Of a stretch of DNA of 64,000 nucleotides, positions 6,651 to 60,445 are shown piece after piece. The DNA is from an uncultured Gammaproteobacteria bacterium (GTDB taxonomy: Bacteria; Patescibacteriota; Microgenomatia; CAYXHB01; CAZYTL01), in the NCBI GenBank assembly GCA_964650355.1, contig CAZYTL010000005.1, positions 23,209 through 87,208 of the forward strand, given 5' to 3'. The notes beneath the pieces are model-generated. The model was not told where the DNA came from and did not search any database. It worked only from the letters and a program-made list of their open reading frames with translations. The translations under genes were made by a program, and so were the position numbers. The number at the start of each line of letters is the position of its first letter. The stretch's first letter is position 1.

Positions 6651-6740
6651 ATCTTCACTCTACCACAGCTCAGAGGTCACGTAACCCGCATCACACAACC
6701 AACAAATCAATGTCTCGTGACTTGACGTTCCGCCATACGC

Positions 6741-7277: not shown

Positions 7278-7333
7278 ATATAATACCAGCTTAACATAAA
7301 CTCAAATTCAGATTCAGCCCTAATTTTCTAATC

Positions 7334-11800: not shown

Positions 11801-12380
11801 TTTAAAATAAAAAACAAATAAGTAAAGCCCTAAAATAAATATTCCTTCCTACCTATGGTTCCATCAGAGTATTTATCAATAATTATTTAATGCTTATAAA
11901 GTTTATAATATTAATATTATTATATTTTAACTATATAAATTTTTCATCTAAATATAGCACTTAATTATAACAAGATATAAGTAACCTGCAATTAAAATCT
12001 GGATAATTCGTCAATTTGGTTGACAATAGAGACTCGTAACCAGTTCAAAATTCGACAAATATCGCACATATTTATATAAAATTGTTACAAATAAATTATA
12101 AATTTTTAATACAATGCGTAAGCAATCTTCAAATATATGAATATTTCTACATAAAACAGGGTTTTTAAACAATAAAATATAAACCATCTATTATGCTAAA
12201 CTAGATAAACGTATATAGATAATAACATCATGAATCCCTGATCAACACAACTGAGAATGAATAGTTTGCTTACCTTTTGTGTGTAGTTCACAACGCGAAC
12301 ATCCAAACATGGAAACATCAACGTCAATCCATGGTTAAGAATGGTTGACTTATCAGATTTGATCTGTTACCCTTACATCA
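11790..12380. other. Roughly 600 bp strongly AT-rich non-coding stretch forming the left flank of the foreign cassette.
   Basis: Long A/T runs such as ataatattaatattattatatttt, with no ORF. It is the only such stretch in the array. It contains a ttgaca hexamer (near 12023) but no convincing -10. Confidence 0.6.
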
Positions 12381-12381
12381 T

Positions 12382-12777
12382 ATGAAAACCGATCCATTAA
12401 ACGCTTTGATATCAAATGATGCAAGAGCCACAGATAGGCAGAAACTCGCGGACCTTCTCACCCCTTATGTAGTAATAGATCAAAAATCACAAGAGTTCGG
12501 CTTTAAAGAAGCCTTCGAGGAGCTAGACAACGACACCAAAATTGAAATCTTTCTTGCAAGTATAAAGGCTCGTGCATTATTATTTGGCGTTACTGACGGG
12601 TCACGTCCTACAGAACTGATTTCCCTTGGAATTATGCCAGAGGGCAGCGTAAAGACCAGCCTCAAGCGCTTATTTGAAAACCGAAAAATAAAGAAAGGGA
12701 ATGACGGTAACTATTTTCTCCCTGCTTACCGTATCCTCGAACTATCTAAACGTCTTGTTACTAAACAACCAAAATAA
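12382..12777 (+). CDS. Hypothetical protein. First gene of a 4-gene foreign cassette. Possible winged-helix C-terminus.
   Basis: 131 aa. Tightly packed with the next gene (stop 12777, next start 12781). Composition is balanced in G and C, unlike its neighbours. Confidence 0.55.
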   Translation: MKTDPLNALISNDARATDRQKLADLLTPYVVIDQKSQEFGFKEAFEELDNDTKIEIFLASIKARALLFGVTDGSRPTELISLGIMPEGSVKTSLKRLFENRKIKKGNDGNYFLPAYRILELSKRLVTKQPK

Positions 12778-12780
12778 ATT

Positions 12781-13173
12781 ATGGATTCAAAACGAATTGA
12801 CGAACTTGAAAAAAGAGTGGAGAAGCTTGAACGGCTCCTACTCACTCCAGATCCAAAACCAACTAAGACCAAAAAAATGTCCCCGAAGGAATTTCTGCTC
12901 ACTAAAAGCGTAAAGTTTAGCATGCAGAAGGTCCTTGTACTCGGATATTACCTCGAACACATGGAAGGAATAGAATCATTCAATGTAATGGATCTTGAAT
13001 CAATATTCCGGGCTGCGAAGGAAAAACTACCTAAAAATATAAATGATATGGTTAACAAAAACGTCGCCCGCGGACTTATTGACGAAGCCAAGAGCCAAAA
13101 AGACTCTAAAAAAGCATGGTATCTAACCTCTACAGGAGAGAACTTGGTAGAAAATGAATTAAATCTAAACTAA
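12781..13173 (+). CDS. Hypothetical protein. Cassette gene 2. Coiled-coil N-terminus and possible winged-helix C-terminus (KAWYLTSTGENLV).
   Basis: 130 aa, with IDELEKRVEKLERLL. Confidence 0.55.
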   Translation: MDSKRIDELEKRVEKLERLLLTPDPKPTKTKKMSPKEFLLTKSVKFSMQKVLVLGYYLEHMEGIESFNVMDLESIFRAAKEKLPKNINDMVNKNVARGLIDEAKSQKDSKKAWYLTSTGENLVENELNLN

Positions 13174-13177
13174 CAAT

Positions 13178-13720
13178 ATGTCAAATAATTCATCGGTAGA
13201 ATTAACGGGAAAAATAGTAGAATTACTTTCGCCCTTAGAATCAGAAGAAAGACTGCGAATCATCGACGCCTCATTAATATTGCTTGGCGAGAAGCCAGCT
13301 GGGGCTGGAAAAAGCAAATATCTCCCTGATAGAGATGATGTTGCTATACTTCCGCAACGCGCACGCTTATGGATAGAGCAAAATAAAATCAAAGTGGAGC
13401 AAATTCAGCAAATATTCCAATTGGGCGATGCCGCTTTTGAAGTCATTGCATCACCCATTCCAGGGAAATCTACAAAGGATCAAACTTTAAATACTTATAT
13501 ACTCACTGGGATTGGTAATCTTCTCATAACAGGAGAGCCTTCCTTCCCGGATAATCAGGCACGTTCGTTGTGTAAAAATTCTGGTTGCTATGACAGTGCG
13601 AATCATTCTGCATATCTAAAAAATAGAGGGAATGTATTCACTGGTAACAAAAAGACCGGTTGGTCACTTACCGGTCCAGGACTTAAACTCGGCGCTGAAC
13701 TTATAAAGGAATTAAACTAA
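13178..13720 (+). CDS. Hypothetical protein. Cassette gene 3.
   Basis: 180 aa. No motif recognised. Confidence 0.5.
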   Translation: MSNNSSVELTGKIVELLSPLESEERLRIIDASLILLGEKPAGAGKSKYLPDRDDVAILPQRARLWIEQNKIKVEQIQQIFQLGDAAFEVIASPIPGKSTKDQTLNTYILTGIGNLLITGEPSFPDNQARSLCKNSGCYDSANHSAYLKNRGNVFTGNKKTGWSLTGPGLKLGAELIKELN

Positions 13721-13723
13721 TAC

Positions 13724-14506
13724 ATGCCTGACCCTAACAAAATATTAATCAACATACCAAGGGGTTTGCGTGAACCACTATTAGAGAGCTATCAAGAAAT
13801 CTCTCGGAATTACACCGAACATCGCTGGGAACCTTCAGAATTAAATGGGGGGAAATTCTCAGAAGCAGTCTATTCGATTATTGATGGAAGTATCAACGGT
13901 TCATTCGCTATAAAACCTTCGAAACCGAAAAATATGGTTAAAGCATGTCGCGATCTTGAAAATCTTCCTGCTAATCCAAACCGTGTTGGTGACAGAAGTC
14001 TACGCATCCTCATTCCACGTTTATTAATAAGTCTCTACGAAATACGGAGTAACAGAAACGTGGGGCATCTAGGTGGTGATGTTGATCCAAATTTTATGGA
14101 TGCTACGGCCGTTTTTAGTATAGCGAACTGGGTACTAGCAGAACTTATACGTATTTTCCATTCAATTTCAACAACAGAAGCTCGAGTAATTGTCAACGGG
14201 ATTGTGGAACGTAAACATCCACTCATTTGGGATGTTGGGAGTGTCAGACGAGTCTTAGACCCCAAGATGAGTAAAAAAGACCAAGCATTATTCCTTTTAT
14301 ATTCCAAGCCTGGATGGGTTACTGAAAAGGATCTTTTTCAATGGGTTGAATACAGCAATTCAAGTATATTTCGTAAATACATACTCATCCCATTACACAA
14401 TATCCGGTTGGTTGAGTATGACCAGTCTCAGGGCCAAGTGCGCATCTCTCCACTTGGTAGCGAATATATAGAGGATAGAATTTTAAAAACACGCACCCAA
14501 TCATGA
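13724..14506 (+). CDS. Hypothetical protein. Cassette gene 4. Possible HEPN-like R-x(4-6)-H motif (RSNRNVGH).
   Basis: 260 aa. The start is 4 nt after the stop of gene 3. Confidence 0.5.
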   Translation: MPDPNKILINIPRGLREPLLESYQEISRNYTEHRWEPSELNGGKFSEAVYSIIDGSINGSFAIKPSKPKNMVKACRDLENLPANPNRVGDRSLRILIPRLLISLYEIRSNRNVGHLGGDVDPNFMDATAVFSIANWVLAELIRIFHSISTTEARVIVNGIVERKHPLIWDVGSVRRVLDPKMSKKDQALFLLYSKPGWVTEKDLFQWVEYSNSSIFRKYILIPLHNIRLVEYDQSQGQVRISPLGSEYIEDRILKTRTQS

Positions 14507-36589: not shown

Positions 36590-37325
36590 CTACCTCCTCG
36601 CCCACCCCACCCCATTGATCAACTGACCGTCGATATGATTACTCGTCGCGTCATGTGCCACCATTCCGCTCCCCTCATTAAACTTCCAATAACCTACCAA
36701 TCCCGGAGAACTCACGTCCACCTCCTTGTTCATATTCCCCTCGATCTCCGCCTCACTTCTGGCCACATCCCAGATTCTCACCTCATCTATCTCCCCGCTC
36801 ATATACTCTGCGCTCAACCTCCCAATCAATAATGGATTGCTATCCTGGTTTATCGTATCACTCCCGACACTGACCTCTTCCACCTTTACTCCGTCTACAT
36901 ATAGCCTCTGATACTGTCCGTCATACATACACGCCATGTGATACCACGTATTATTACTCACACTTGTGTCCCAACTCACCCGACGATTGCCTGCATTAAC
37001 GTAGTTAAAATAACAATTGAAACTGCTTTCATTTACCCACAGTCTCATCTGATTAAAGGCTGTACTCATCAAATTACTATTAGCGCTAAAATTATCAGCC
37101 TTCACCCATCCCTCTATCGTAATTCTATTACCGGGCTTGTATGCGCTACTACTGGGCACTTCCACATAACCATCCACCCCGTCAAAACTTAAACTGTAAT
37201 TCGTATTCATCCCCACTTTCGTTGCCCAATCCAAACTATTAACCTTTCCATCCCCAACCAAATCCAGTCAGGCTCATCCCCAGCCCTATCAATAACCAAA
37301 CCAGCAAGACTAATCTTCTCCGCAT
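36590..37325 (-). pseudogene. Minimal or remnant family member. The family promoter and signal peptide are joined, across a +1 frameshift, directly to a dockerin-like module plus LamG domain.
   Basis: From the ATG at 37325 the reading is MRRRLVLLVWLLIGLGMSL..., stopping after 28 codons. Skipping 1 nt gives LDLVGDGKVNSLDWATKVGMNTNYSLSFDG... open to 36590. The ORF track starts this frame at a TTG (37261). The TGATAGAGTGGAAGT-ATG promoter box is present at 37326-37340. It looks like a deletion derivative of a 23103-like gene. Confidence 0.55.
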
Positions 37326-37381
37326 ACTTCCACTCTATCATAGCCCAACGTAACCCATACGTAACAAAAACAAAATGCTAA

Positions 37382-39976
37382 TTACTGACCAACAACTACC
37401 TCTGTCCAGTCCCAACTATTCACCTTCCCGTCTCCATTTATATCTCCTAAACTTGTCAACCAGTTCATCAACAAATACTTCAAATCTCTCATCCGATATA
37501 TTAGCCTGTCTTTAATCACCATCTCCCCAAAAGCCGTGGTATCATCCGCCGGTTTTTTCACTTTCACCGGAAACCATAATAAATAGTTGTCCCTGCTTCC
37601 TCCGTCGTCATCGTCATTGATACCCAAATCAAACCCCATTATTTGATTCACTGATACATTACTCTGCCCTAAATTGGGATCCCAAGGTATGGCTACTTCT
37701 ATCACGTAGCCATCGCTACTGATGGCCACCGCATGCTCCACCCCGGTTGCTTCGCTGATTGCCCCATGCTCAGCTATACGGTTGAGTAAATCAACCGTAT
37801 ATTGGTGGTCGTTCGCATCATAATCAGCCTGACTATCTCTATCCCCGTCTACAAAAATCTCCACGCTGTCATCATCCCATATATTAGTCGACTCGTTACT
37901 TACCAATTGATCATCTGTCACTTTCACCCCTACATATAAATACTGCTCATCCCATGCCATCTGCCAACTCCCGTTCACGTCACTTGCCGGCTCACTCGCC
38001 TCCGCATAGCCAAACTCCCCCTCGTTCACTGGTATCCCTTGCCAGTCATCCAAATTCCCATCTATCATCAACGGCGCAAACACCCGCACTCCTTCCACCG
38101 GTAACCACGGCACTATCGTCGGCGTCGGACTGGCACTACTACTAACTGTTAACTGTCTCCAATTATAACTCAGAGTAGGATACCCTGGATAACTAAGAGT
38201 AAACACGTCTGATCCGTAAGCAAACTGCGCATAAGGACTATCCAAAATCGGATAACTCAAGTCAGCTTTAGTTAACGCCTGTCCGTTAATTTCCCGCCCT
38301 TTTAAAATATCACTGTCATATCGCAGTGACAAACTGGCTCCGTCTTTTGCTTGATAATTAATTTGCGGATAGGTTTTACTAAAACTCACGCTGCGTGATC
38401 GGATATTCTGCTTAAAAGCATCAAAAGACGCATAATCGTCAACATGGGCAATTTCCCCGACTCCACCTGATTTTCCATTTGCCCTTACTAACCAATAACC
38501 ATTCTTTGAATCCCAAACCATTTTTCCACTCTCTCCCCAGGCTCGGTATGCGATATAAGCTTCACCCTGCTGACCAAACCACCACCCGCTATAAGAAGAA
38601 GGTACATCCAATGTCGCATACTTAGGAATGTGCACCTGGGTAAACTCATACGTCTTCCCGTAAGGATTCCATACCTGCATCATCACATTCTTATAAAAAA
38701 GCATCCTCCGCTTCCCTCCGAACTCTATAGTAAAATCTCCCTCTCCGCTACCCGAATTTGCTTGGTTTGGGTCGCTGAAATCACCTGCATCCCCCGGTTG
38801 GATCTGAGTCAACACCGTCCTCTTCCCCCCTGCCTCTTCTGAAGTATAAATGCTATTCGTCTGGCCGTTGTTGGGCCAACCACTTGTATAGGCTTGACTG
38901 CCCCCCATGCCTGCTGCCTGGTTTTTAAGCACAAAATAATTCAACGGGTCTAGCCTCTTGTTGTCTATAAAGATTGCCGTGCCATAATCCCTGATATCTG
39001 AAAAAATGTCTGCCATTCTCCGCCATGAAAAATTTCCCTCAGCCGCCTTGCGGTGATAAATCTCTCTAATGATATCAGGAGGTTGATAACCTGACACCAC
39101 AATCCCCGGAGCTTTCCAGCTTAAAAAACCAGGCACGGGAATCTGCTCGGCAAACAACAACCACTTCCCGGTCAGAGACCAATTATCGTCCTCTACTGCC
39201 CCTTTATAGTCTCTACTTTCCGGCCCCACGTAAAGATTATGCGGCAACAAATTCAACGCGTTATTCAACAAAATATAATCAAGCGCAAACTGAGCCTTCT
39301 TCCGAATCTGCGCATCATTAGAATACGTCAAAGCCGTCAATCCCAAACAGGTGAGATCCGTGTAACTAGCGGAGTTGAATTCGAATTCTCCACTGGTCAT
39401 CATCCTTTCATAAGCCCGGTTAAAACGCATCTTTGCCACATCAATTCTAGTCTGATTCCCCAAAGCCTCCCCTGATAACATCACCGTCGCCGCCCACGTT
39501 ACCAAATGATTACTCATGGGTTCATCTCTGTTATCACCCCAAGTATCGTTCATTGCCCTTCTGAATACCTGATTCTTCAAGTCCGTACTAATACCAATAT
39601 CCGGATATTTCCTCAACCCCAAAACCACACTCACAGTCCAATGGTGATCAGCATTGCTATTGTTTAAACTCAGTGTGGTCTTGATATCTTTTTCCAAATT
39701 AGCCACTGTGTCATCAGAGTACGCCCATCCCCGCTTAATCCGCTCCATTCTGGCCAAAATCACTCCGCCGTTTTTCCGAATATCTCCGTCAATCGTTCGA
39801 ATATTCCTGTCCCAATTTCTAATCAAATATTCCGCGTGCTGATTATAGATCGTTTGATAACCACTCTCTACGATCGCAGCTTCTACAGGCAAAGAAAACC
39901 AGTAGACAAACACTATTGCCATTACTAAGCACACCCCCGTCTTAAATCCCCCGCTAATTAGATTACTTTTTGTCAC
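37382..39976 (-). CDS. Secreted large protein (unknown, possibly polysaccharide-lyase-like N-region) with CBM9-like module and dockerin-like tail. The ORF-track start is a GTG.
   Basis: 864 aa. The CBM9-like block MIDGNLDDWQGIPVNEGEFGYAEASEPASDVNG is about 85% identical to the domains in 275 and 14604. The tail is LLMNWLTSLGDINGDGKVNSWDWTEVVVGQ. There is no TAGAGT box upstream. Confidence 0.7.
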   Translation of the reverse strand: MTKSNLISGGFKTGVCLVMAIVFVYWFSLPVEAAIVESGYQTIYNQHAEYLIRNWDRNIRTIDGDIRKNGGVILARMERIKRGWAYSDDTVANLEKDIKTTLSLNNSNADHHWTVSVVLGLRKYPDIGISTDLKNQVFRRAMNDTWGDNRDEPMSNHLVTWAATVMLSGEALGNQTRIDVAKMRFNRAYERMMTSGEFEFNSASYTDLTCLGLTALTYSNDAQIRKKAQFALDYILLNNALNLLPHNLYVGPESRDYKGAVEDDNWSLTGKWLLFAEQIPVPGFLSWKAPGIVVSGYQPPDIIREIYHRKAAEGNFSWRRMADIFSDIRDYGTAIFIDNKRLDPLNYFVLKNQAAGMGGSQAYTSGWPNNGQTNSIYTSEEAGGKRTVLTQIQPGDAGDFSDPNQANSGSGEGDFTIEFGGKRRMLFYKNVMMQVWNPYGKTYEFTQVHIPKYATLDVPSSYSGWWFGQQGEAYIAYRAWGESGKMVWDSKNGYWLVRANGKSGGVGEIAHVDDYASFDAFKQNIRSRSVSFSKTYPQINYQAKDGASLSLRYDSDILKGREINGQALTKADLSYPILDSPYAQFAYGSDVFTLSYPGYPTLSYNWRQLTVSSSASPTPTIVPWLPVEGVRVFAPLMIDGNLDDWQGIPVNEGEFGYAEASEPASDVNGSWQMAWDEQYLYVGVKVTDDQLVSNESTNIWDDDSVEIFVDGDRDSQADYDANDHQYTVDLLNRIAEHGAISEATGVEHAVAISSDGYVIEVAIPWDPNLGQSNVSVNQIMGFDLGINDDDDGGSRDNYLLWFPVKVKKPADDTTAFGEMVIKDRLIYRMRDLKYLLMNWLTSLGDINGDGKVNSWDWTEVVVGQ

Positions 39977-40009
39977 TATTTTTAATCTAGCACACCCTTA
40001 CAGTTACCA

Positions 40010-41458
40010 CTACTGTTTTACCACTCTTACCCAATCCCAACAATTCACCTTCCCGTCTCCATTCTGATCTCCGATGGCGCTAAACCAATTGACCAACCAC
40101 GACTTCAAATTAGTCAGGTCTAAAGAAATTTTTTCAATCCGGATTTTGTCAAGTTTGGTGTTCATTTCCCGTCCTTGAAAGCGGAGAGTGTAGACCGGCC
40201 CGTTTGTGAGAGTAAAGATTCGGGGATCAGTTTTAGGCGAATCAAAAGTACCGCTGCCCCGGTAGCTGACCTGATTCCAAACCCAAGAAGTGGGAGGTTG
40301 AGTATCAATGGTTTGGTAGAGGATATCCCAGATGTCAGCAGTAGTAGGAGAGGTTTGGTTGATGGTAACGTAGAAGGAGTTATCGTTACCGGCAGTAGGC
40401 CAGACTCTGCCTGAGACTAAGTAGTCACCAGATTGGGCAACTCTGAATTGGAAGGCGGCGTTTCCATTATCTGCTTGGGAAGAATAGATATATTGACCTC
40501 CGGAAGCCGTGGAGTCAGAGTTGATAGTCATGGAAGATAGTTGCATAGACTCGGCCTCCGATTCATAGGCAGTTTGGATCAGAGCCGGAGTAGGTGTCGG
40601 GCCGGTCGTTGGGGAAGGCGTAGGAGTAGATGTGGGACCTCCCGGACAGGGAGGTCCTCCTTGATCAGGATTCACTTCTGCACAACTGGTACCTCTCCGA
40701 TACTCATCGTGATAGATAATCTCTGTATCACTATAAATGTCTTTGTTTCTATAAATCCCCATCTTCAAATAAGGCCCAGTATTATAATCGTAATCGTAGC
40801 CTACTGGCCCACCGTAATCTAAAACAGGATCCGGATTGCCATCCATCCAAACCCTCACATAATGGTTTCCTGATAGTCGGTAATCAAAACGAGTATTAAA
40901 AATAAAATCATGCCATACTCCCTGTGTTGCTTTTCCAATCCATTTATCCTGATTAGATCCTTCTGTAGATCTGATGCCAATATAAAAATCGCCCCCATAA
41001 ATGTACTGCAAGCTTAAAATCGGGCTATCTCCTCCGGTAGCCGCATGCCATTGGGCTATTATATTAAATCTGTAAGAACCATTTGGCTGATACCTAGGGT
41101 CAATATATACTGAAAACCCCTGCCAAACGTCTGTTGAATAAGGGATTTTGTCTTGATCATTAGCTCCATTTAACATAATTTCGGAGCGTTCATTTCCTCC
41201 CATGGGGTTTGGTGTGGGTATGTTTCCATCTCGCACTATGTTTCGCACCGCATATTTGCCGCTTCTTACCGGACTGGTTACCACCTGCGTCGAATCGGTA
41301 CAACAATGGCCACCATCTCGCCACCCGCTTAAATCCCCACTCTCAAAATCCAACACCTTGTGTTGAATATATTGAGCTCTTGCTGGGAACACAGCCACAA
41401 ATCCCATTACCCAGCATGCAACCACCAATCCAGCAATTCGCCACCATTTCCTGTCCAT
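40010..41458 (-). CDS. Secreted concanavalin-like putative polysaccharide lyase (PF14099-like jelly roll) with CBM6/35-like module and dockerin-like tail.
   Basis: 482 aa. The lyase block is ERSEIML...QWHAATGGDSPILSLQY. The CBM block is AYESEAESMQLSSMTINSDSTASGGQYIY..FQFRVAQSGDYLVSG..DNSFYVTI. The tail is LKSWLVNWFSAIGDQNGDGKVNCWDWVRVVKQ. Confidence 0.7.
   Translation of the reverse strand: MDRKWWRIAGLVVACWVMGFVAVFPARAQYIQHKVLDFESGDLSGWRDGGHCCTDSTQVVTSPVRSGKYAVRNIVRDGNIPTPNPMGGNERSEIMLNGANDQDKIPYSTDVWQGFSVYIDPRYQPNGSYRFNIIAQWHAATGGDSPILSLQYIYGGDFYIGIRSTEGSNQDKWIGKATQGVWHDFIFNTRFDYRLSGNHYVRVWMDGNPDPVLDYGGPVGYDYDYNTGPYLKMGIYRNKDIYSDTEIIYHDEYRRGTSCAEVNPDQGGPPCPGGPTSTPTPSPTTGPTPTPALIQTAYESEAESMQLSSMTINSDSTASGGQYIYSSQADNGNAAFQFRVAQSGDYLVSGRVWPTAGNDNSFYVTINQTSPTTADIWDILYQTIDTQPPTSWVWNQVSYRGSGTFDSPKTDPRIFTLTNGPVYTLRFQGREMNTKLDKIRIEKISLDLTNLKSWLVNWFSAIGDQNGDGKVNCWDWVRVVKQ
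40150..40640. repeat. Left arm of a roughly 480 bp inverted duplication. It encodes the CBM6/35-like module of 40010 and is G-rich on the plus strand, against the local skew.
   Basis: The reverse complement of 40270-40320 is cctctaccaaaccattgatactcaacctcccacttcttgggtttggaatcag. The matching 43420-43470 reads ctctatcaaaccattgacacccaacctcccacttcttgggtttgggatcag. Confidence 0.65.
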
Positions 41459-41589
41459 ACCTCCACTCTACCGCAACCTAACCTCAACTATCAACCTTTT
41501 CCGCCTCATGATATTCTGTAAATAAGTACTCATCTACCCATTTTTAAAAACTACCAATTCTCTCCTTAATTATTCTTATATGTAAAATC

Positions 41590-43737
41590 ATGAATAAACC
41601 TAAACACCTCTCATTTCTATTTCTTATCAGACTAGCCGTCAAGATTTCACTTTCTCTATTGCTCTTTCTATTTGTTAGTTCTCCGGTTTACGCCCAATCC
41701 ACAGTCACCATTGTTCCCACATTCCAATCTCTGGGCATTTATTGGCAACACTCTCAGGGGTCAAGTACCGCCCAAGTCCAATACCGGCCCTCAGGAACAA
41801 CTACCTGGCACACGGCTCACCCCATGTGGTATGCCGGTAACTCTGAATACCGCAGCAGCATTGTGCTACTAAACCCGGGGACTACATATGAAGTCCGTCT
41901 GACTCTGGGCACTTCCTCAGTCACTACCACCGCCACCACCTGGTCGGAAAACTTCCCCATCGGCCAAACCGTTACCTTGCCCGAAAACACCTCTCAAACC
42001 GTAACCATCAATAATTCAGGCACTGCCAACGGCTATCTGTTATATACCCATCAATCAGGCAAAACCGCCACCATCAATACTACCGCCACCAATAACATCA
42101 GAATCAACGGGTCCTATGTAATTATTCGTGGTTTGACGTTAAAAAACGCCGGCACGGACGCCATCAAAATTAGTAGAGAGTCTCACGACATCATCGTCGA
42201 AAACAATACTGTCACCAACTGGGGCGGATCAGGAAATAGTAATAACATGGCCGCAGCCGTCAGCACCGACCAACCAGGAAATGGTTACAACGCCGGACCT
42301 CGAATTATTATTCAAAACAATCTATTCACTACCCCCAGAGGCAACTCCAATACCTGGGACACTGCTCATCCCCATGGCCCTCAGGGAGTAACCCTGTGGG
42401 AAACCGACGGACAAAACGTCATCCGCAGCAACACCGTCACTTCCAATAATAGCCATTATTATAACGACGGGATCGGCGGAGGCAAAAATTCTAGTACCAG
42501 AGGCAACGTTTACCGCGACAGCGACATCTATAACAACACCGTGAAATATTGTCGGGATGATGGATTAGAAATCGAAGGAGGCAATATGAACGTTAGAATA
42601 TGGAATAACCATATCGATAACTGTTTTGTGGGCATCGCTACTGCAGCTAACCTCACTGGCCCCAATTACATTTTCCGCAACCTGATCACCAACGGCCGCC
42701 AGAGCGATGGCAATATCAAGTCAGCCGCCTTCAAGTTAGGCAGCGGCAGCACCTTTGGCGCCATCTACATTTACCACACCACTGTAAATAACGTCAGAAA
42801 CGGCCTCACCAACTGGGGCGGAGCAGTCTATAACCTCACCGCCAGAAATAACATCTTAAACACAATTCAAGATAGTATCGGCTCTACCATCGCTTCCTCT
42901 AACATTTATGACCACAACACTTGTGCCAATCCTGAAACTGGCTGCACCACCGGCACTGTAGCGTTCGAAAGCGGCTCTTATATTCCCACCTCCAGCATCG
43001 CTGTAGACAAAGGTCTTCCTATTCCTAATTTCAATGATGGCTATCTCGGCTCAGCTCCTGACATCGGCGCTTTCGAAAGAGGCGGTACCGTACCCAATCC
43101 CACAGCGACTCCCACATCTGGCCCTACTCCCACCACTGGTCCGTCGCCCACGCCCCCCCTCATCCAAACCGCCTACGAACTCGAAGCCGAATCCCTGCAA
43201 CTCTCTTCTCCCATGACCATCAACTCTGACTCTTCAGCTTCCAATGGTCAATACATCTCTTCCCCAATAGCTGAACAAGGAATCGCTGCTTTCCAATTCA
43301 AAGTTGCCCAAGATGGTGACTATCTCATCTCCGGTAAGGTTTTCCCTACCGCTGGGAATGATAACTCTCTTTACATCACCATCGATCAGTCCTCTCCCAC
43401 TGCCGCAGATACTTGGGATATTCTCTATCAAACCATTGACACCCAACCTCCCACTTCTTGGGTTTGGGATCAGGTCAGCTACCGGGGCACAGGTACCTTT
43501 GACTCTCCCCAAACTGATCCTCGTATCTTTACTCTCTCTGCCAACCACACCTACGCTCTCTATATCCAGTCCCGGGAAATCAACACCAAACTCGATAAAC
43601 TCCGCATTGAGAAAACTACCACCACTCCACCCACTTTGCAGCAATTTCTCACTCACTGGCTCACCTCTACCTTCGACCAAATCTTAGACGGCCAAGTCAA
43701 CAGCCTAGATTTTTCCCAAATCATAACCAATCTCTAA
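41590..43737 (+). CDS. Secreted beta-helix protein (plus-strand member): FN3-like N-domain, helix rungs, CBM6/35-like module, degenerate dockerin-like tail.
   Basis: 715 aa with a signal peptide. The rungs include IIVENNTVTNWGG and IWNNHIDN. The module AYELEAESLQLSSPMTINSDSSASNGQYISS...FQFKVAQDGDYLISG is about 80% identical to the one in 40010. The tail is LQQFLTHWLTSTFDQILDGQVNSLDFSQIITNL. Confidence 0.75.
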   Translation: MNKPKHLSFLFLIRLAVKISLSLLLFLFVSSPVYAQSTVTIVPTFQSLGIYWQHSQGSSTAQVQYRPSGTTTWHTAHPMWYAGNSEYRSSIVLLNPGTTYEVRLTLGTSSVTTTATTWSENFPIGQTVTLPENTSQTVTINNSGTANGYLLYTHQSGKTATINTTATNNIRINGSYVIIRGLTLKNAGTDAIKISRESHDIIVENNTVTNWGGSGNSNNMAAAVSTDQPGNGYNAGPRIIIQNNLFTTPRGNSNTWDTAHPHGPQGVTLWETDGQNVIRSNTVTSNNSHYYNDGIGGGKNSSTRGNVYRDSDIYNNTVKYCRDDGLEIEGGNMNVRIWNNHIDNCFVGIATAANLTGPNYIFRNLITNGRQSDGNIKSAAFKLGSGSTFGAIYIYHTTVNNVRNGLTNWGGAVYNLTARNNILNTIQDSIGSTIASSNIYDHNTCANPETGCTTGTVAFESGSYIPTSSIAVDKGLPIPNFNDGYLGSAPDIGAFERGGTVPNPTATPTSGPTPTTGPSPTPPLIQTAYELEAESLQLSSPMTINSDSSASNGQYISSPIAEQGIAAFQFKVAQDGDYLISGKVFPTAGNDNSLYITIDQSSPTAADTWDILYQTIDTQPPTSWVWDQVSYRGTGTFDSPQTDPRIFTLSANHTYALYIQSREINTKLDKLRIEKTTTTPPTLQQFLTHWLTSTFDQILDGQVNSLDFSQIITNL
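43090..43630. repeat. Right arm of the inverted duplication (CBM6/35-like module of 41590).
   Basis: See the 40150-40640 entry. The mirror-image spurious ORFs 40175..40414(+) and 43234..43680(-) both contain VADLIPNPRSGRL. Confidence 0.65.
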
Positions 43738-43842
43738 ACTTGAACGACCTTCACGACCAACTTCTAACTTTAAAATTCTTTCTTCTACCTTCTGATTTCT
43801 AATAACCATTTTCTCAAAAAATGCAACTGTTATACTACACCA

Positions 43843-44652
43843 ATGACGACTTCCGGTCTTTTCCTCATCAACAAGCCACCTGCCTCGCCGAACGCAAGTC
43901 AAGGCAGGCCCGGACCCACCAGCCATGATATCGTCAATATCGCCAGGAAAAAACTCGGCATTAAAACCATCGGCCATACCGGCACCCTTGATCCTTTCGC
44001 TACCGGATTACTGATACTTTTGGTAGGAAAAGCAGCCACCAAACAGCAATCACGTTTCCTCAAACTCGACAAACAATACCTGGCCACCGCCCTCTTCGGC
44101 TACACCAGCGACACCTACGACATTACCGGTTCTATCCACAAATCTGACTCCGAATTTCAAAATCTTAATCCTAAAACTCTTGAATCTAAAATCTTAAATC
44201 TTAAATCTAATTTCACCGGTACCATTCTCCAAACCGTTCCTCCCTTCTCCGCAGTCAAACGTCATGGTCAAAAACTCTACCATCTGGCCAGAAAAGGCCA
44301 AATTAATCTCTCTGACCTCCCTCAACGCCGAGTCACCATTCACAAGTTCACCATCACCAATCAGTCCCCACCCCCAAACCATTTCATCAACAAAGTTATT
44401 AAAACCAACAATTTGACAATTCAACAATTTAACAATCTAACTACTAATTTCCTAATAGAATGTTCCACCGGCACCTACATCCGCTCCCTCATCCACGACC
44501 TTGGCCAAGAAATCGGAATCGGCGCCCTGGTTGCAGCTCTCCACCGCACCCACATCGGTCCCTATACTATCTCCCAAGCTATTCCCCCCGACCAAATAGA
44601 CCCCGAACATATCCGACCGTTGACATTTCCCTCTCAACTCACCAAACTATAA
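43843..44652 (+). CDS. truB: tRNA pseudouridine(55) synthase TruB.
   Basis: [23 protein letters not shown] matches the TruB catalytic-Asp motif. The NKP..TSHD N-terminal motif is also present. Confidence 0.85.
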   Translation: [269 protein letters not shown]

Positions 44653-48322: not shown

Positions 48323-50100
48323 CTACCAGTCTCTTAACTGAGCCAGAAATCAAACACCCTTCTCCTCTGCATTTTTTTATCATCAAGGACCACAATGACA
48401 TAATGTTAGAAATTAAATAAAAATCTTCATTTCCAATTCTTCTGTAACTCCTACCTCCATCCCGACAGCCAAGTGTCACTCCTAAAATGATCAACCGCGG
48501 ATCAATATCCATCCGCATAAGACCAGTCCTATTGAATGACTGAATTCCCCGTTGTGCCCTCCTGCTCCTAACATCACCCAATTTCAGGAGCGATTTATCC
48601 AAATTCCGAAGCTCCATTAATTAGGGGTACAACTATTCGCTAACCCCGACACTTCTGACGCAGAAAGAGCACGGTTATACACTCTAATTTCATCAAGATC
48701 CCCTGTAATATCAGCACCATCACTAACCCCCCTACAATCCATTCCAACTCCCACATAACAAATATGTCCAATCGGTGGTCCAGTGGCTCGGCTAACAACG
48801 CTCACCCCGTTAACATACAACCTAGCCATACCGTCTGTATCGGAATAAGTTAAAGCCACGTGACTCCATTGGCCAACTGGTAAAGGATTAGAGGCATTAA
48901 GGTAATCATAACCTCCTCCTCGGTGAATTAAGCCTTGAGGACGATTTTGACTGTCAAGATTTATAATGAATGTACTCCGGCCATCAATAACTAGGTTATA
49001 AGAACCGCTTTGCGTTCTCGGCCTAACCCAAGCCGCAATCGTAAAATCTGTCACATCAAAATCGCCCCCATCAGTACCAGAGGGACTGATAAAAGTTCTA
49101 TTCCTACCGTCGATACTAAGAGCTTGCCCCCCACACCCACCGTTGATCCATGTATCTCCAGTCGGATCCAAGAGAGAAGTATGATAATTATATCCCGACA
49201 TATCAAATACATTACTATCTGATTCGTTATCGAACGAATAATATAGAATCAGCCCTGGTTCAGGTGAGGGTTCTGGTGTGACCATAGTTGTCGGTGTCGG
49301 GGTAGGTGTCGACGTCGGAGGGACAGGTTCTATACACAATCCGGTATCAGGATCGCACACCTCCGGATCAGTACATCCACTAACTACACAACTCGATACA
49401 CACGTTCCCGTATCCGGATCACATACCCCATACCCGTCACATACACTCGGATCTGTAGTACAATCATACCCCCCACATAGATAAGTCGGATTGTCCCCAC
49501 TCGGCTCACATTGCCCCCCACTTCCACACGCCGCAGATGACCAACACTCTAATGTACATGGATTCCCCGGATCTTTCGCCTGACATGCATATTCCCCTAC
49601 CCCTCCATACGGATTACATACCTCACATTGCCCACACGCACTCGGATCATCAGGATCACATGGCGTCAGACTCCCAGGCGGTGTCGTCGGTCCCGGCCCA
49701 GGCGGTACCGTCACCTCCGGTGGCGGTGTCGGTGTTGGTCCTCCTCCTGTACCAAACCCTTCAAATATCTCTATCCCCAAAAAATATTGCACCAAAATCG
49801 CTATCGCATACGATAACGCCAACACCGCAAACCCTATCAAACACTGCGTCAACCTCTCCCTCGCCTTCTGTAAATTAGATTGATCATCTCCACTCGTTAA
49901 CCACTGAAACCCTCCCCACAACAAACATAAAAATACCACCACTCCCCCTGCTATCAACACCATCCCCAATACCTTCGACAGAAATGTCGGTATCGATATC
50001 ACCCCACTAAATAGATTCCCCACCTCCTGTAAGTGCCCCAACAATTGCGTCACTGGCTGCATGCTAACCTTAGTATCTCATTCGCCTTTTTACCCTGTCA
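48190..50100. repeat. Tandem duplication unit 1: galT 3' end, spacer, surface-protein gene, promoter.
   Basis: 48190-48322 recurs at 50128-50280. 49500-50100 recurs near-identically at 51430-52036. Confidence 0.7.
48617..50062 (-). CDS. Membrane-anchored Cys-rich surface protein with N-terminal two-TM hairpin (TrbC/VirB2-like topology), PT linker, CxxC-rich region and C-terminal LamG-like domain.
   Basis: 481 aa. TM1 is VLGMVLIAGGVVVFLCLLWGGFQWL. The loop is TSGDDQSNLQKARERL. TM2 is CLIGFAVLALSYAIAILVQYFL. There are many CGQCEVC/CTLEC motifs. The LamG block is FTIAAWVRP...LYVNGV. Confidence 0.65.
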   Translation of the reverse strand: MQPVTQLLGHLQEVGNLFSGVISIPTFLSKVLGMVLIAGGVVVFLCLLWGGFQWLTSGDDQSNLQKARERLTQCLIGFAVLALSYAIAILVQYFLGIEIFEGFGTGGGPTPTPPPEVTVPPGPGPTTPPGSLTPCDPDDPSACGQCEVCNPYGGVGEYACQAKDPGNPCTLECWSSAACGSGGQCEPSGDNPTYLCGGYDCTTDPSVCDGYGVCDPDTGTCVSSCVVSGCTDPEVCDPDTGLCIEPVPPTSTPTPTPTTMVTPEPSPEPGLILYYSFDNESDSNVFDMSGYNYHTSLLDPTGDTWINGGCGGQALSIDGRNRTFISPSGTDGGDFDVTDFTIAAWVRPRTQSGSYNLVIDGRSTFIINLDSQNRPQGLIHRGGGYDYLNASNPLPVGQWSHVALTYSDTDGMARLYVNGVSVVSRATGPPIGHICYVGVGMDCRGVSDGADITGDLDEIRVYNRALSASEVSGLANSCTPN

Positions 50101-50388: not shown

Positions 50389-51984
50389 TTAGAATAAGTG
50401 AAAGTTATACACTGTATCCCCGCTCACATTCATATAATTAAAGTCACGGTATATATTCGGGCCATCCCTCAACAATGACCAAACTACATATCTTCCGTTA
50501 GGCAAGCCATTAATTCGATAGTTGCCGCTTGCATCAACCCTACCTGAACGAATCGCTCCGGTATCAACATTATAAATATAAATAGGAGTATTCGCTTGAG
50601 AAATCGGAATCCCTCCTGTCCCCGGATATCGATTAATTCCGCTCAAACTTCCGGTTCCTACACTCGGAGGAGTTAAAGTTGACAAATCAATATCTCTGAC
50701 AAATGGTACCCAGAAATTAATTATATTAGGCACGGTATCACTGGAATCCATAGTCCCGTGACCAAAAGTCAAAACACTGCCTTGTCTCCTCAGAATAGTT
50801 ATCAAATAACTATTTGGCGCATACTGCAATGGATAAAGACTATTCAACTGCAAGTCGCCTTGACTATTGGTTGTGAACGGACACCAAGAAATAGGAATGC
50901 TCGGATCCAGACTATAACTGAACAAATATCCTGGTTCGCTAGCATAAGCCGTACCATACAATAATAAATTAACATTTATATAAGTAGACGAACCCGTTAA
51001 CCCAGTAGCACAAGCATACTGCCCTGCTGGTGGTGTTGGAGTAGGAGGTATAGGAGTATTCGTCGGAGCAATGTATTCACATCTACAATTAGTCCATTCT
51101 TTCGCTCGGTTTTGACATCTCGGCGCTCCCGTAGAACTGTGCATCACCCTTCCGCATCCTATCCCACTCGTCTCCGTACAACTCGCGTCACTCCCTAAAT
51201 ACGCCCTGTTATTAGTCGCCAACCTATCAGTCCCTACATCCGTGCATTCCCGCCCCGCCCCAGAGCACAACTGGTTACAACTCTGATTAGTCGCAATATT
51301 AGGTATCGACGGATCTATACAATGACCCGTCTCAGGATCGCATACCCCGTACGGCTCACATATACTCGGATCTGTCGTACAATCTCTCTGCATACACTCC
51401 TCCCGGTATTCACCACCTTCCGCCGGTTCGCATTGCCCCCCACTCCCACACGCCGCAGCTGACCAACACTCTAAAGTACAAGGATTCCCCGGATCTTTAG
51501 CCTGACATGCATATTCCCCTACTCCACCATACGGATTACATACCTCACATTGCCCACATGCACTCGGATCACTCGGATCACATGGCGTCAGACTCCCTGG
51601 CGGTGTCGTCGGTCCCGGCCCCGGCGGTACCGTCACCACCGGTGGCGGTGTCGGTGTTGGCCCTCCACCACTTCCAAACCCTTCAAATATCTCTATCCCC
51701 AAAAAATATTGCACCAAAATCGCTATCGCATACGATAACGCCAACACCGCAAACCCTATCAAACACTGCGTCAACCTCTCCCTCGCCTTCTGTAAATTAG
51801 ACTGATCATCCCCGCTCGTCAACCACTGAAACCCTCCCCACAACAAACATAAAAATACCACTACTCCCCCGGCTATCAGCACCAAACCCAACAACCTCGA
51901 CAAAAACGTCGGTATCGATATCACCCCACTAAATAGATTCCCCACCTCCTGTAAGTGCCCTAATAATTGCGTCACCGGCTGCAT
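50389..51984 (-). CDS. Paralog of 48617..50062 with an identical N-terminal 230 aa (two-TM anchor plus Cys-rich region) but a different C-terminal half: a second Cys-rich block, PT linker, and a carboxypeptidase-regulatory-like beta-sandwich.
   Basis: 531 aa. The C-terminal block is RSGRVDASGNYRINGLPNGRYVVW. The N-terminal 5' half is near-identical to copy 1 at nucleotide level. Confidence 0.65.
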   Translation of the reverse strand: MQPVTQLLGHLQEVGNLFSGVISIPTFLSRLLGLVLIAGGVVVFLCLLWGGFQWLTSGDDQSNLQKARERLTQCLIGFAVLALSYAIAILVQYFLGIEIFEGFGSGGGPTPTPPPVVTVPPGPGPTTPPGSLTPCDPSDPSACGQCEVCNPYGGVGEYACQAKDPGNPCTLECWSAAACGSGGQCEPAEGGEYREECMQRDCTTDPSICEPYGVCDPETGHCIDPSIPNIATNQSCNQLCSGAGRECTDVGTDRLATNNRAYLGSDASCTETSGIGCGRVMHSSTGAPRCQNRAKEWTNCRCEYIAPTNTPIPPTPTPPAGQYACATGLTGSSTYINVNLLLYGTAYASEPGYLFSYSLDPSIPISWCPFTTNSQGDLQLNSLYPLQYAPNSYLITILRRQGSVLTFGHGTMDSSDTVPNIINFWVPFVRDIDLSTLTPPSVGTGSLSGINRYPGTGGIPISQANTPIYIYNVDTGAIRSGRVDASGNYRINGLPNGRYVVWSLLRDGPNIYRDFNYMNVSGDTVYNFHLF

Positions 51985-57827: not shown

Positions 57828-58910
57828 ATGAAAGCCATCATCCCTATTGGCGGTCGCGGCACCCGCATGCGCCCGGTCACCTTCACCGCCAACAAACACT
57901 TCATTCCCGTTGGCAACAAACCGCTAATCTTCTACCCCATTGAAACCATCGTTGAAGCCGGAATCAAAGACATCGCCATCACCTATAATCCCGGACAGCT
58001 AGAATATGCTAAAGAAGTTCTTGGTAATGGTTCCCGATGGGGTGCCAAATTCACCTACATCCTTCAACCCGAGCCCAAAGGCTTGGCCAACATCTATCAA
58101 GTCTGTGAAGACTGGGTCGGCAACGACCTCTTTGTCTCTCACATGGGAGACAATATCTTTACCAATGGCATCAAAGATCTCGTTCAATTCTTCAAAAAAG
58201 CCAAGCCCTCAGGTGGCCTGGTCACCATGGTCCAACATCCGGAAAATTGGAGATTAGGTGTGCCTTATTTTGATAAACAAGGGAATTTAATAAAATATGT
58301 CGAGAAACCGAAAAATCCTCCTCATAATTTTGCCGTTCCCGGACTTTACTTCATGACTCCTAACGCTTTTAAAGTCTTTAAAGGCAAGGATAAACTCCAA
58401 CCATCAGCGCGAGGGGAATACGAACAACCCGATGCCTATCAGTGGTTAATCGACCACCACTACCAAGTCCTTGTCAAAGAATACCAAGGCAAATGGCTCG
58501 ACCCTGGCAAATTCAACGATTGGCTGGAGACCAACCAATACCTGCTCGACACCCAAACCCAAACAGACCTGAAAAGCAAACCCGACAAACATTCCAAAAT
58601 CGAAGGCCGCGTTACTATTGGCAATCAGTGTCAAATAAAAAACACCACCATCCGCGGTCCAGTTAACATTGGCGACCACGTCACCATCATGGACAGCTTT
58701 ATCGGCCCCTACACCTCTATCTACCACAACTGTCACCTGCTCAACTGCAACTTGGAGAACTCCGTACTCATGGGCAGCGTCATCCTCAAAGACATCACCA
58801 AACCTATCGACAACAGCATCATCGGCCCAGATTCAGAAATCAAGGGCAACCACAACGGCCATGACGACCTCGAACTATTCATTGGAGAGATGTCGAAAAT
58901 TTCACTGTGA
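57828..58910 (+). CDS. Sugar-1-phosphate nucleotidyltransferase (glucose-1-phosphate thymidylyltransferase-like long form with C-terminal left-handed beta-helix).
   Basis: The N-terminus has IIPIGGRGTRMRPVT...KPLI. The C-terminal hexapeptide repeats are IGDHVTIMDSFIGP. Confidence 0.7.
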   Translation: MKAIIPIGGRGTRMRPVTFTANKHFIPVGNKPLIFYPIETIVEAGIKDIAITYNPGQLEYAKEVLGNGSRWGAKFTYILQPEPKGLANIYQVCEDWVGNDLFVSHMGDNIFTNGIKDLVQFFKKAKPSGGLVTMVQHPENWRLGVPYFDKQGNLIKYVEKPKNPPHNFAVPGLYFMTPNAFKVFKGKDKLQPSARGEYEQPDAYQWLIDHHYQVLVKEYQGKWLDPGKFNDWLETNQYLLDTQTQTDLKSKPDKHSKIEGRVTIGNQCQIKNTTIRGPVNIGDHVTIMDSFIGPYTSIYHNCHLLNCNLENSVLMGSVILKDITKPIDNSIIGPDSEIKGNHNGHDDLELFIGEMSKISL

Positions 58911-58999: not shown

Positions 59000-59401
59000 A
59001 TGGATACTTACGCTAGTATTGAAAATCTACAAAAACTTAAGGTCTATCAATTAAGCAGAAAATTGTCCAAATTAGTTTGGGATATAGTTTCTAAATGGAA
59101 ATACGTTGCCCAAAAGACAATTGGTATTCAATGGATCGAATCAACTGACTCAATTTCATCAAATATTGCAGAAGGTTATGGAAGATACCATTTTAATGAA
59201 AGCATAAATTTCTATTATTTTTCTCGAGGTTCTTTATTTGAATCTCATGACTGGTTTAAAAAAGCTCAGGAAAGAAGATTGTTAACAGGAGAACAAATTA
59301 AGCAATATTTAGACATTTTTGAAAAAATCCCTATTGAACTGAATGTGTTAATTAAGCGAACCAAAACAAGTGCGAAAGAATACAAAAAGTTGAATAAATA
59401 A
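59000..59401 (+). CDS. Four-helix-bundle protein of the 23S-rRNA-intervening-sequence family.
   Basis: 133 aa. The motifs are LKVYQLSRKL...SNIAEGYGRY...SRGSLFE. It is flanked by AATAAAT-rich repeats, consistent with an insertion into the rml cluster. Confidence 0.6.
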   Translation: MDTYASIENLQKLKVYQLSRKLSKLVWDIVSKWKYVAQKTIGIQWIESTDSISSNIAEGYGRYHFNESINFYYFSRGSLFESHDWFKKAQERRLLTGEQIKQYLDIFEKIPIELNVLIKRTKTSAKEYKKLNK

Positions 59402-59434: not shown

Positions 59435-60445
59435 ATGAAAATTTTAGTAACCGGCGGCGCTGGCTTCATCGGCTCCAACTTCATCCACTACTGGCTAGAA
59501 ACTCATCCCCGCGATAAAATCATCAACCTCGACAAACTCACCTACGCCGGCAACCTGGAAAACCTCAAAGACATCGAACACCACCCCAACTATAAATTCA
59601 TCAAAGGAGACATCCTCGACAAAAAACTAGTTAAAAAGCTCATGCCGGACATCGACATCGTGGTTCATTTTGCTGCCGAATCCCACGTAGATCGTTCGCT
59701 ATTTGCCGCTGAAGACTTCATCACCAGCAACGTCATTGGTACTCAAATCCTTTGCGAAGCCGCGGCCCAACATCATATTAAACGATTCCACTACATCGGC
59801 ACAGATGAAGTATTCGGTGCTCTTCCCTTAAATACTAAATCTAAATTCAAAGAAACTGACCAATTCGACCCCCGCAACCAATATGCAGCCAGCAAAGCCG
59901 GCGCAGAATACATCGTCCGCGCTTATTACCACACTCACCAGCTACCCATTACCATTACCAACTGCACTAACAATTTTGGTCCTTATCAACACCCCGAAAA
60001 ACTCATTCCTTTGTTCATCACCAACCTGTTAGAAAATAAACAGGTTCCCATGTACGGCGATGGACTCTATGTCCGGGATTGGCTTTATGTTAAAGACCAT
60101 TGTCGCGCTATAGATTTAGTCCTCAAAAAAGGCAAAGTAGGCGAATCCTATCTTGTCGGAGCGCAACACCAAGAAGTCAACAACCTTCAACTCACTAAAA
60201 AAATCCTCACCATTCTTAACAAAGATGAAAAGTACATCAAGCACGTCAAAGATCGCCCCGCTCATGACCGTCGTTACGCCGTAGATTGGAGCAAAATCGC
60301 CCAACTGGGATGGAAACCGGAACATGATCTTGATACCTGGCTGGAGTACACTGTTAAATGGTACACAGAAAATGAACAATGGTGGCGCCGGGTCAAAAGC
60401 GGAGAATATCAAAAATACTACCAAAAAGTCTACCAAAACAGATAA
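59435..60445 (+). CDS. rfbB: dTDP-glucose 4,6-dehydratase.
   Basis: TGGAGFIGSNF Rossmann motif, the catalytic YAASKAGAE (YxxxK) and the RmlB-type C-terminus. Confidence 0.9.
   Translation: MKILVTGGAGFIGSNFIHYWLETHPRDKIINLDKLTYAGNLENLKDIEHHPNYKFIKGDILDKKLVKKLMPDIDIVVHFAAESHVDRSLFAAEDFITSNVIGTQILCEAAAQHHIKRFHYIGTDEVFGALPLNTKSKFKETDQFDPRNQYAASKAGAEYIVRAYYHTHQLPITITNCTNNFGPYQHPEKLIPLFITNLLENKQVPMYGDGLYVRDWLYVKDHCRAIDLVLKKGKVGESYLVGAQHQEVNNLQLTKKILTILNKDEKYIKHVKDRPAHDRRYAVDWSKIAQLGWKPEHDLDTWLEYTVKWYTENEQWWRRVKSGEYQKYYQKVYQNR

Follow-up and report, generated by a model that had tools for sequence, protein, structure and literature searches.

We identified a protein domain on the wrong strand in the window, a stretch of 64,000 nucleotides (nt) of contig CAZYTL010000005.1, where two divergently transcribed genes, here called gene A and gene B, carry related modules in inverted orientation. 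Both genes have a signal-peptide-like start, and each encodes a module resembling the carbohydrate-binding module (CBM) families 6 and 35. The module of gene A was probably flipped into that gene by a recent, non-reciprocal transfer from a long-lived sister of the gene B module that had been carried on the C-rich coding strand. This reading draws on a skew reversal confined to 40141-40654, on three classes of synonymous site that all carry the signature of plus-strand genes, on a likelihood ratio test (LRT) statistic of 16.5 against a strand switch as old as the two copies, and on a related gene pair, on a contig designated L008, that is free of the module.

The plus strand of the window consists of 27.7% A, 27.2% T, 29.9% (29.89%) C, and 15.2% (15.20%) G. 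Its GC skew of -0.326 holds regardless of gene orientation, and there is no skew switch where gene orientation turns near 41.5 kb. At third codon positions of the coding strand, nearly all minus-strand genes have a skew (GC3 skew) of about +0.3 to +0.6; most plus-strand genes lie at about -0.5 to -0.8, and gene B (-0.66) is typical of the latter. A reading of the sequence made before this analysis (the sequence-only reading) had singled out the 3' segment of gene A as G-rich on the plus strand, and we confirmed this: 200-nt windows over 40100-40699 have a GC skew of +0.13 to +0.33, compared with -0.2 to -0.68 in the surroundings. Maximum-likelihood change-points fall at 40141 and 40654, with a skew of +0.287 inside and -0.341 outside (log-likelihood ratio [LLR], 36.7). 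The highest skew among the 1271 windows of 500 nt in the 64 kb, +0.276 (mean, -0.323; standard deviation, 0.132), belongs to this segment.

The same reading had described the segment as different from every other minus-strand gene and as carrying the C-ending codons of a plus-strand gene, and both descriptions hold. Codons 298-429 of gene A have a GC3 skew of -0.54, compared with +0.38 +/- 0.18 for other minus-strand genes (minimum, -0.14; n=318 windows) and -0.69 +/- 0.11 for plus-strand genes. A log-likelihood scan of third positions located the segment at gene A codons 312-439 (40142-40525) with an LLR of 36.0. The largest value in 20 other minus-strand genes was 8.9, and the segment is unique among the 33 genes.

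All three synonymous site classes of the module are plus-type. At two-fold pyrimidine (Y) sites, 60% are C in the gene A module (62% in plus-strand genes and 26% in minus-strand genes); at two-fold purine (R) sites, 13% are G (18% and 56%, respectively); and at four-fold sites, 22% are purines (18% and 69%). The lyase domain of gene A, on the other hand, is minus-type, with 26% C at Y sites, 42% G at R sites, and 62% purine at four-fold sites, and so is the tail, with 27% C, 67% G, and 75% purine and a GC3 skew of +0.43. Thus, gene A is a three-part mosaic in which a wrong-strand module lies between a lyase domain and a tail that are both native. Inversion of gene A as a whole was considered because the lyase domain at first seemed intermediate (GC3 skew, +0.08), and was rejected on the minus-type site classes of that domain. 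In the linker of gene A, the plus-strand skew comes mostly from CCN and ACN codons and is amino-acid-driven, with mixed third positions.

It is very improbable that the C-rich coding of the A arm reflects a protein rich in Thr, Ser, Pro, and Gln, or codon selection, rather than history. Codon positions 1 and 2 are indeed C-rich in both modules, and the linker adds its amino-acid-driven skew, but strictly synonymous sites of all three classes carry the signal, and no other minus-strand gene, those with Pro/Thr linkers included, has such a segment. The module family itself also argues against an imposed composition. A search of 1.84 billion representative proteins at E <= 0.001 yields 1868 members, often with several copies in one protein, and the member closest to the A module after that of gene B is P0029, at 49% identity. 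P0029, which was sequenced from the same sample and agrees in architecture and tail, is encoded on the G-rich strand of a contig with a skew of +0.32. Its module has a GC3 skew of +0.41; thus, the family does not need C-ending codons.

The observation that the C-terminal parts of genes A and B form an inverted repeat was borne out by two aligned blocks, 40208-40537 with 43207-43536 (330 nt, 79% identity) and 40129-40193 with 43551-43615 (65 nt, 75% identity). The repeat is far beyond chance, and these are the only two copies of the module in the window. With the linker part included, the arms extend over 40124-40630 and 43105-43614, in inverted orientation; the last ~12 linker codons of gene A are homologous to the gene B linker, and a short inverted match (40617-40637 with 43110-43130) joins the two linkers. 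At the protein level, A and B are 67% identical over 189 amino acids (aa) (E, 1e-81) and 77% identical over the 153-aa module.

The nucleotide identity of the arms had been overestimated, at 85 to 90%. In a codon alignment of the module core (459 nt, A codons 293-445), we measured 75.8% identity, with 82%, 88%, and 57% at codon positions 1, 2, and 3, respectively. An identity of 95% is reached in one 60-nt stretch only, and the exact runs common to both arms are 24 and 21 nt long. By the Nei-Gojobori method (NG86), nonsynonymous divergence (dN) is 0.16 and synonymous divergence (dS) 1.0, with a dN/dS of about 0.16, and both copies are under purifying selection. Over different estimates, dS is about 0.6-1.0; F81 distances are 0.89 when calculated from 60 four-fold sites and 0.55 when all 116 synonymous third positions are used, and the arms differ at 38-47% of synonymous sites. 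The earlier proposal that one arm is a very recent duplicate of the other calls for near-identity and fails at 75.8% identity and this dS. Other paralogous modules of the same gene array have four-fold-site distances of 0.3-1.6, bar one saturated pair with 32 sites, and thus the A/B pair is of ordinary age. When changes were polarized with 28 family members, 10 amino-acid changes were A-derived and 11 B-derived, giving equal branch lengths. One run of 15 codons with identical third positions is possibly a short later conversion tract or the result of nucleotide-level constraint.

An assembly artifact, that is, a chimeric or collapsed join at the module, is scarcely credible. The exact runs of 24 and 21 nt could be bridged by short k-mers, but the positions on both sides of these runs differ by 24%, the open reading frame (ORF) is uninterrupted and in frame, its boundaries coincide with those of the domains, and dN/dS is 0.16. 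In addition, a contig from a second assembler (Logan, run SRR14802573) is 100% identical to window positions 37240-44569, a span of 7330 nt that includes both arms, and gene A is also present as a called gene in an independent assembly. Since the arms are 24% diverged, collapse is excluded, and misassembly is very unlikely.

We then modeled the strand switch with strand-specific equilibrium frequencies for each synonymous site class, taken from the window genes, and left the A lineage free to change regime at a point rho, expressed as a fraction of the time elapsed since A and B separated. In the joint model over 103 synonymous sites, a switch at the split itself (rho = 1) was rejected (LRT, 16.5; p = 5e-5), and none of 150 parametric bootstraps reached the observed LRT. 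The site classes gave LRT values of 7.2 (p = 0.007) for two-fold sites alone and 9.7 for four-fold sites alone. The best rho was 0.06, with 95% support from 0 to 0.40. Eleven same-strand paralog pairs gave a kappa of ~1.25, which, together with the same answer from transition-only two-fold sites, settles the ambiguity that a free kappa introduces at four-fold sites. C-to-T and T-to-C differences between the arms are balanced, and the synonymous compositions of A and B are almost equal.

From these results we infer a recent flip but an old pair of copies, so that the two ages differ. The earlier claim that the segment is too young to have re-equilibrated therefore needs to be divided: it stands for the orientation, which is young relative to synonymous change, and falls for the copies, which by their dS are old. 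Because of this difference in age, gene B in its present form is unlikely to have been the direct donor; another C-strand copy is the most likely source.

A related gene pair shows the locus in a form free of the module. A protein search returned, besides genes A and B themselves, P0272, a protein of 319 aa that is 73% identical to the lyase domain of gene A. P0272 is encoded on contig L008 (ENA ERZ27293400 k141_606611) at 7308-8267, in tandem with a 559-aa homolog of gene B (5560-7239; 75% identity over B aa 32-502). In both L008 homologs, the Pro/Thr linker runs straight into the tail and the module is absent, so the cassette is present or absent exactly at the linker/tail junction. The L008 lyase gene is a mosaic as well. 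Its lyase domain (codons 1-233) is G-type on a C-rich strand, with an LLR of 44.5 compared with at most 10 for the other genes of the contig, and the linker and tail of this gene are C-type, which mirrors the mosaic in the window. Between the window and L008, the four-fold-site distance is 0.34 for the lyase orthologs and 1.57 for the B orthologs; thus, the lyase domain moved after the lineages had split. Over 77 nt, the two tails on L008 share 84% identity.

Taken as a mechanism, the transfer would have involved a cassette of ~0.46-0.5 kb, comprising the CBM6/35-type module and about 12 linker codons, that now lies between the linker and the tail of gene A. A sister copy of the gene B module would have had a long history on the C-rich strand before it moved, inverted, into gene A by non-reciprocal recombination. 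Either ectopic gene conversion or a domain insertion using the linker and tail junctions could have served as the route, and the move would be recent relative to synonymous change. The donor would be an unseen paralog elsewhere in the genome or in a related strain, with gene B as its closest surviving relative.

Several points weigh against this transfer from a sister copy. The dating rests on an F81-type model with equilibrium frequencies pooled from only 33 genes and with 103 sites, and under an HKY model with free kappa, the 60 four-fold sites alone (kappa, 7.2) leave the models inseparable. At differing sites, A has more G than B (25:11) and less C (26:44; p about 0.03-0.04), and thus some time on the G-rich strand has elapsed. 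No donor closer than B was found in the window, in the 1.84 billion representative proteins, or in genome and metagenome scans. Finally, because the L008 homolog of gene A is itself mosaic, the absence of the module there leaves the ancestral state of gene A unproven.

The alternative, which is the idea of the sequence-only reading apart from its very recent date, is that gene A received the module by direct inverted duplication of gene B or of the immediate ancestor of gene B. The copy would have stayed on the G-rich strand throughout the divergence, about 0.3-0.5 synonymous substitutions per site per lineage, and re-equilibrated more slowly than modeled. We consider this unlikely. It would be natural in that B adjoins A and holds the closest known relative of the A module (77% aa identity, compared with <= 49% for all others), and it would account for the modest shift of A toward G and off C relative to B. 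Codon positions 1 and 2 point the same way, with a net change in C of -4 on the A branch and +3 on the B branch; the 15-codon identical tract suggests that the arms may still interact; and with a kappa of ~7, the four-fold sites alone fit a direct duplication equally well. However, the transition-only two-fold sites are unmoved, with 60% C and 13% G as in plus-strand genes, and suffice by themselves to reject a direct duplication (LRT, 7.2; p = 0.007). The kappa from the eleven same-strand pairs is ~1.25 and not 7, and the joint LRT of 16.5 was matched in 0 of 150 bootstraps.

Inverted repeats 2.7 kb apart can mediate inversion, and two successive inversions between the arms with different crossovers would amount to a reciprocal exchange of module segments. 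Such an exchange predicts a G-type patch in the gene B module, but the largest patch in gene B (LLR, 5.8) is at codons 18-33, outside the module, and on both sides, the DNA between the arms has its correct equilibrium composition. A double inversion was therefore rejected on the lack of a G-type patch in the gene B module, and we give it almost no credence next to a transfer from a C-strand sister copy.

We also looked for relatives more widely. Queries with the gene A protein, with an alignment of the two modules, and with a 50-nt degenerate DNA pattern encoding W[VI]W[DN][QE]VS[YH]RG[ST]GTFDSP found no close relative in GTDB genomes or JGI metagenomes, and a word-index protein search with the module alone as the query gave no matches. 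In the closest relatives, L002 and L003, the surroundings of truB and the GAPDH gene hold a subtilase gene in place of the locus. In L002 (JGI 3300057003; GAPDH 88% identical), GC skew changes from about -0.4 to +0.25 just downstream of the GAPDH gene, at about position 3500, which may mark a rearrangement breakpoint or a replication landmark.

We used structure prediction to characterize the module. The AlphaFold model, built from a 30-sequence alignment, has a predicted local distance difference test score (pLDDT) of 89.5 and a predicted template modeling (TM) score of 0.85 and shows a beta-jelly-roll, galactose-binding-like fold; a two-sequence input gave a pLDDT of 45 and was discarded. 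The top Foldseek matches are CBM35, CBM6, and MiXBM (E about 2e-6; target-normalized TM, 0.65-0.77), and a profile of the 30 sequences matched xanthan-lyase module, CBM6, and CBM35 chains in the PDB at E values of 3e-4 to 0.02. Neither A nor B matches Pfam CBM_6 or CBM_35, and the sole Pfam match of the module is to CBM_4_9, at 17.3 bits, below the cut-off of 25.9. Relatives within the family have weak Pfam matches to GH115_C, CBM_6, CBM_35, and Golvesin_C. The CBM6/35-like label given to the module by the sequence-only reading is thus apt for the fold but does not extend to threshold-level sequence membership in either family.

Like CBM6 and CBM35 structures (PDB 2w1w, 2w47, 2cdp, 1uxz, and 2vzp), the module has a predicted beta-jelly-roll and the common N-terminal EAE...ASGG.Y motif, and it is likewise placed after a catalytic domain and a Pro/Thr linker and before a dockerin-like element. 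It differs in its sequence identity of 12-20% to these structures and in falling short of the Pfam CBM_6 and CBM_35 thresholds. The module would steer the lyase to the same polysaccharide as enzyme B.

Local GC-skew reversals mark recent inversions and insertions in bacterial chromosomes. DNA that has switched strands keeps its old mutational composition until substitutions erase the traces, and the change of sign marks the piece and its boundaries. The gene A module has the features of such a scar, namely, a reversal of synonymous skew, sharp boundaries, and correctly composed flanks, and like other scars, it keeps the composition of its old strand after the change. It differs in that the switched piece is one ~0.45-kb protein domain inside a native gene, read at synonymous sites. 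A further difference is that the C-rich strand here appears to run along the whole chromosome, as far as 64 kb can indicate, and not by replichore.

Ectopic gene conversion and domain shuffling occur among paralogous modular carbohydrate-active enzymes (CAZymes), such as cellulosomal enzymes with dockerins. The genes studied here share with these the combination of catalytic domain, binding module, and anchoring tail, with modules common to paralogs, and the transfer is likewise non-reciprocal and linker-bounded. Differences from cellulosomal enzymes are a single dockerin-like repeat below the Pfam threshold, a host in the Candidate Phyla Radiation (CPR), and transfer across strands. Overall, a domain has been transferred across strands in a CAZyme array prone to shuffling, and a known type of extreme strand asymmetry exposes the event. 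The case is a neat one of ordinary domain shuffling, a natural experiment and not a new kind of system. It shows that synonymous composition can reveal, and roughly date, domain-scale strand switches in CPR genomes with extreme one-strand disparity, and that the age of the paralogs can be told apart from that of the rearrangement, two things that sequence identity alone would confuse. Microgenomates are usually considered metabolically limited, and the array is a record of mix-and-match evolution among the secreted glycan-degrading enzymes of a bacterium resembling this group.

Two independent wrong-strand domains occur in the same gene pair in two lineages, the binding module in the window and the lyase domain in L008. 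One might suppose that the array undergoes unusually frequent cross-strand exchange of cassettes at linker/tail junctions in genomes with one-strand disparity, although we think this doubtful. If it were so, the locus could be a hot spot of recombination or be subject to a dedicated mechanism that shuffles cassettes and so diversifies combinations of enzyme and binding module, and skew would provide a built-in clock for each event.

The GAPDH encoded in the window is 64% identical to that of "Ca. Chazhemtobacterium aquaticus," and its best named matches are Microgenomates. Placed by this protein, the host is a Microgenomates-like bacterium of the Patescibacteria/CPR. A chromosome-wide disparity of G and C is known from the Microgenomates order UBA1400, in "Ca. 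Chazhemtobacterium aquaticus" Ch65, "Ca. Collierbacteria," and "Ca. Beckwithbacteria," with 29.83% C and 14.97% G on one strand of Ch65 (PMC7143001). The window is similar, with 29.9% C and 15.2% G on one strand across both gene orientations and without a skew switch; it differs in coming from another lineage and in spanning 64 kb, from which the behavior of the whole chromosome would have to be extrapolated. Domain-level skew scars are not described in the UBA1400 paper (PMC7143001).

Positions of the features of the gene A/gene B locus in the window
Feature	Positions	Strand	Basis or remark
Gene A	40010..41458	-	ORF, 482 aa; predicted secreted polysaccharide lyase; PF14099
Gene A dockerin-like C-terminal tail (aa 446-482)	40013..40123	-	Motif GDQNGDGKVNxWDW
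A arm, CBM6/35-fold module (aa 293-445)	40124..40582	-	Wrong-strand cassette; C-strand synonymous composition on the G-rich strand
Run of 15 codons with identical third positions	40256..40300 (partner 43444-43488)	-	Permutation p = 0.0076
Gene A Pro/Thr-rich linker (aa 262-292)	40583..40675	-	Codon listing; alignment
Gene A lyase domain (aa 38-253)	40700..41347	-	Pfam PF14099, E 2.9e-34
Divergent intergenic region A/B	41459..41589	.	131 nt, AT-rich; presumed site of both promoters
Gene B	41590..43737	+	ORF, 715 aa; predicted secreted enzyme
B arm, CBM6/35-fold module (aa 524-675)	43159..43614	+	Closest known relative of the A arm
Gene B spacer and degenerate dockerin-like tail (FDQILDGQVNSLDF)	43615..43734	+	Motif Gly and Trp positions lost

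The order of parts in gene A is signal peptide, PF14099 lyase domain, Pro/Thr linker, CBM6/35-like module, and dockerin-like tail, and the lyase domain passes the PF14099 gathering threshold with 119.3 bits against a cut-off of 29.9. Gene B consists of a signal peptide, an uncharacterized catalytic region, a Pro/Thr linker, a CBM6/35-like module, and a degenerate tail; its N-terminal ~500 aa match neither a Pfam family (E <= 0.1) nor a PDB sequence. In the intergenic region, promoter-like matches are no more frequent than in shuffled sequence, and the locus as a whole has no excess of promoter-like or terminator-like sites and no Rfam family.

Genes A and B close an array of about 20 predicted secreted CAZymes at 275-43737. 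Its catalytic domains (beta-helix, GH26, PL14, chondroitinase-B-like, and PF14099) are paired in a mix-and-match manner with CBM9, F5/8-type-C, Golvesin_C, Laminin_G_3, or CBM6/35-like modules. Most of the proteins end in a conserved tail of ~35 aa (WLxxxGDxNGDGKVNSWDW) that resembles a single dockerin repeat. The tails fall short of type I dockerins (PF00404), which have two tandem calcium-binding repeats: each tail has one DxNGDGKVN repeat, and a neighboring gene scores 15.8 bits, below the cut-off of 22.9. P0279, a distant relative from the Patescibacteria, carries a precomputed Pfam assignment to Dockerin_1 (PF00404).

The tail of gene A (40027-40110) matches the tails of 11 other minus-strand genes as direct repeats with 72-97% nucleotide identity. 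The tail of gene B has no nucleotide-level match to any other tail and is C-type, with 11% purine at four-fold sites. It is without the Gly and Trp of the motif (FDQILDGQVNSLDF versus GDQNGDGKVNSWDW), a decay as expected from long G-depleting pressure on a C-rich coding strand.

Other parts of the window also depart from its usual composition or gene structure. A skew-neutral island of low GC content (38%) at 12100-14500 interrupts the array. Its four plus-strand ORFs (12382-14506) lack Pfam matches, and the island is probably foreign DNA of recent acquisition. In a sugar-nucleotide cluster, the gene for a 23S rRNA-intervening-sequence protein (PF05635) at 59000-59401 has a fraction of G and C at third positions (GC3) of 0.25 and no skew, and it looks foreign. 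Small G-type third-position patches occur in the plus-strand genes 57828-58910 (codons 136-168; LLR, 12.2) and 59435-60445 (codons 290-317; LLR, 10.5), both far weaker than the segment in gene A. ORF 36590-37261 has the tail motif (LVGDGKVNSLDW) at its start, followed by a Laminin_G-like region, and ORFs 7334-8941 and 8964-9269 look like parts of one beta-helix gene; this ORF and the 7334-9269 pair may be split or rearranged genes. Finally, the minus-strand genes 48617-50062 and 50389-51984 are 89% identical over their N-terminal 222 aa, with a four-fold distance of 0.32, and differ in their C-terminal halves.

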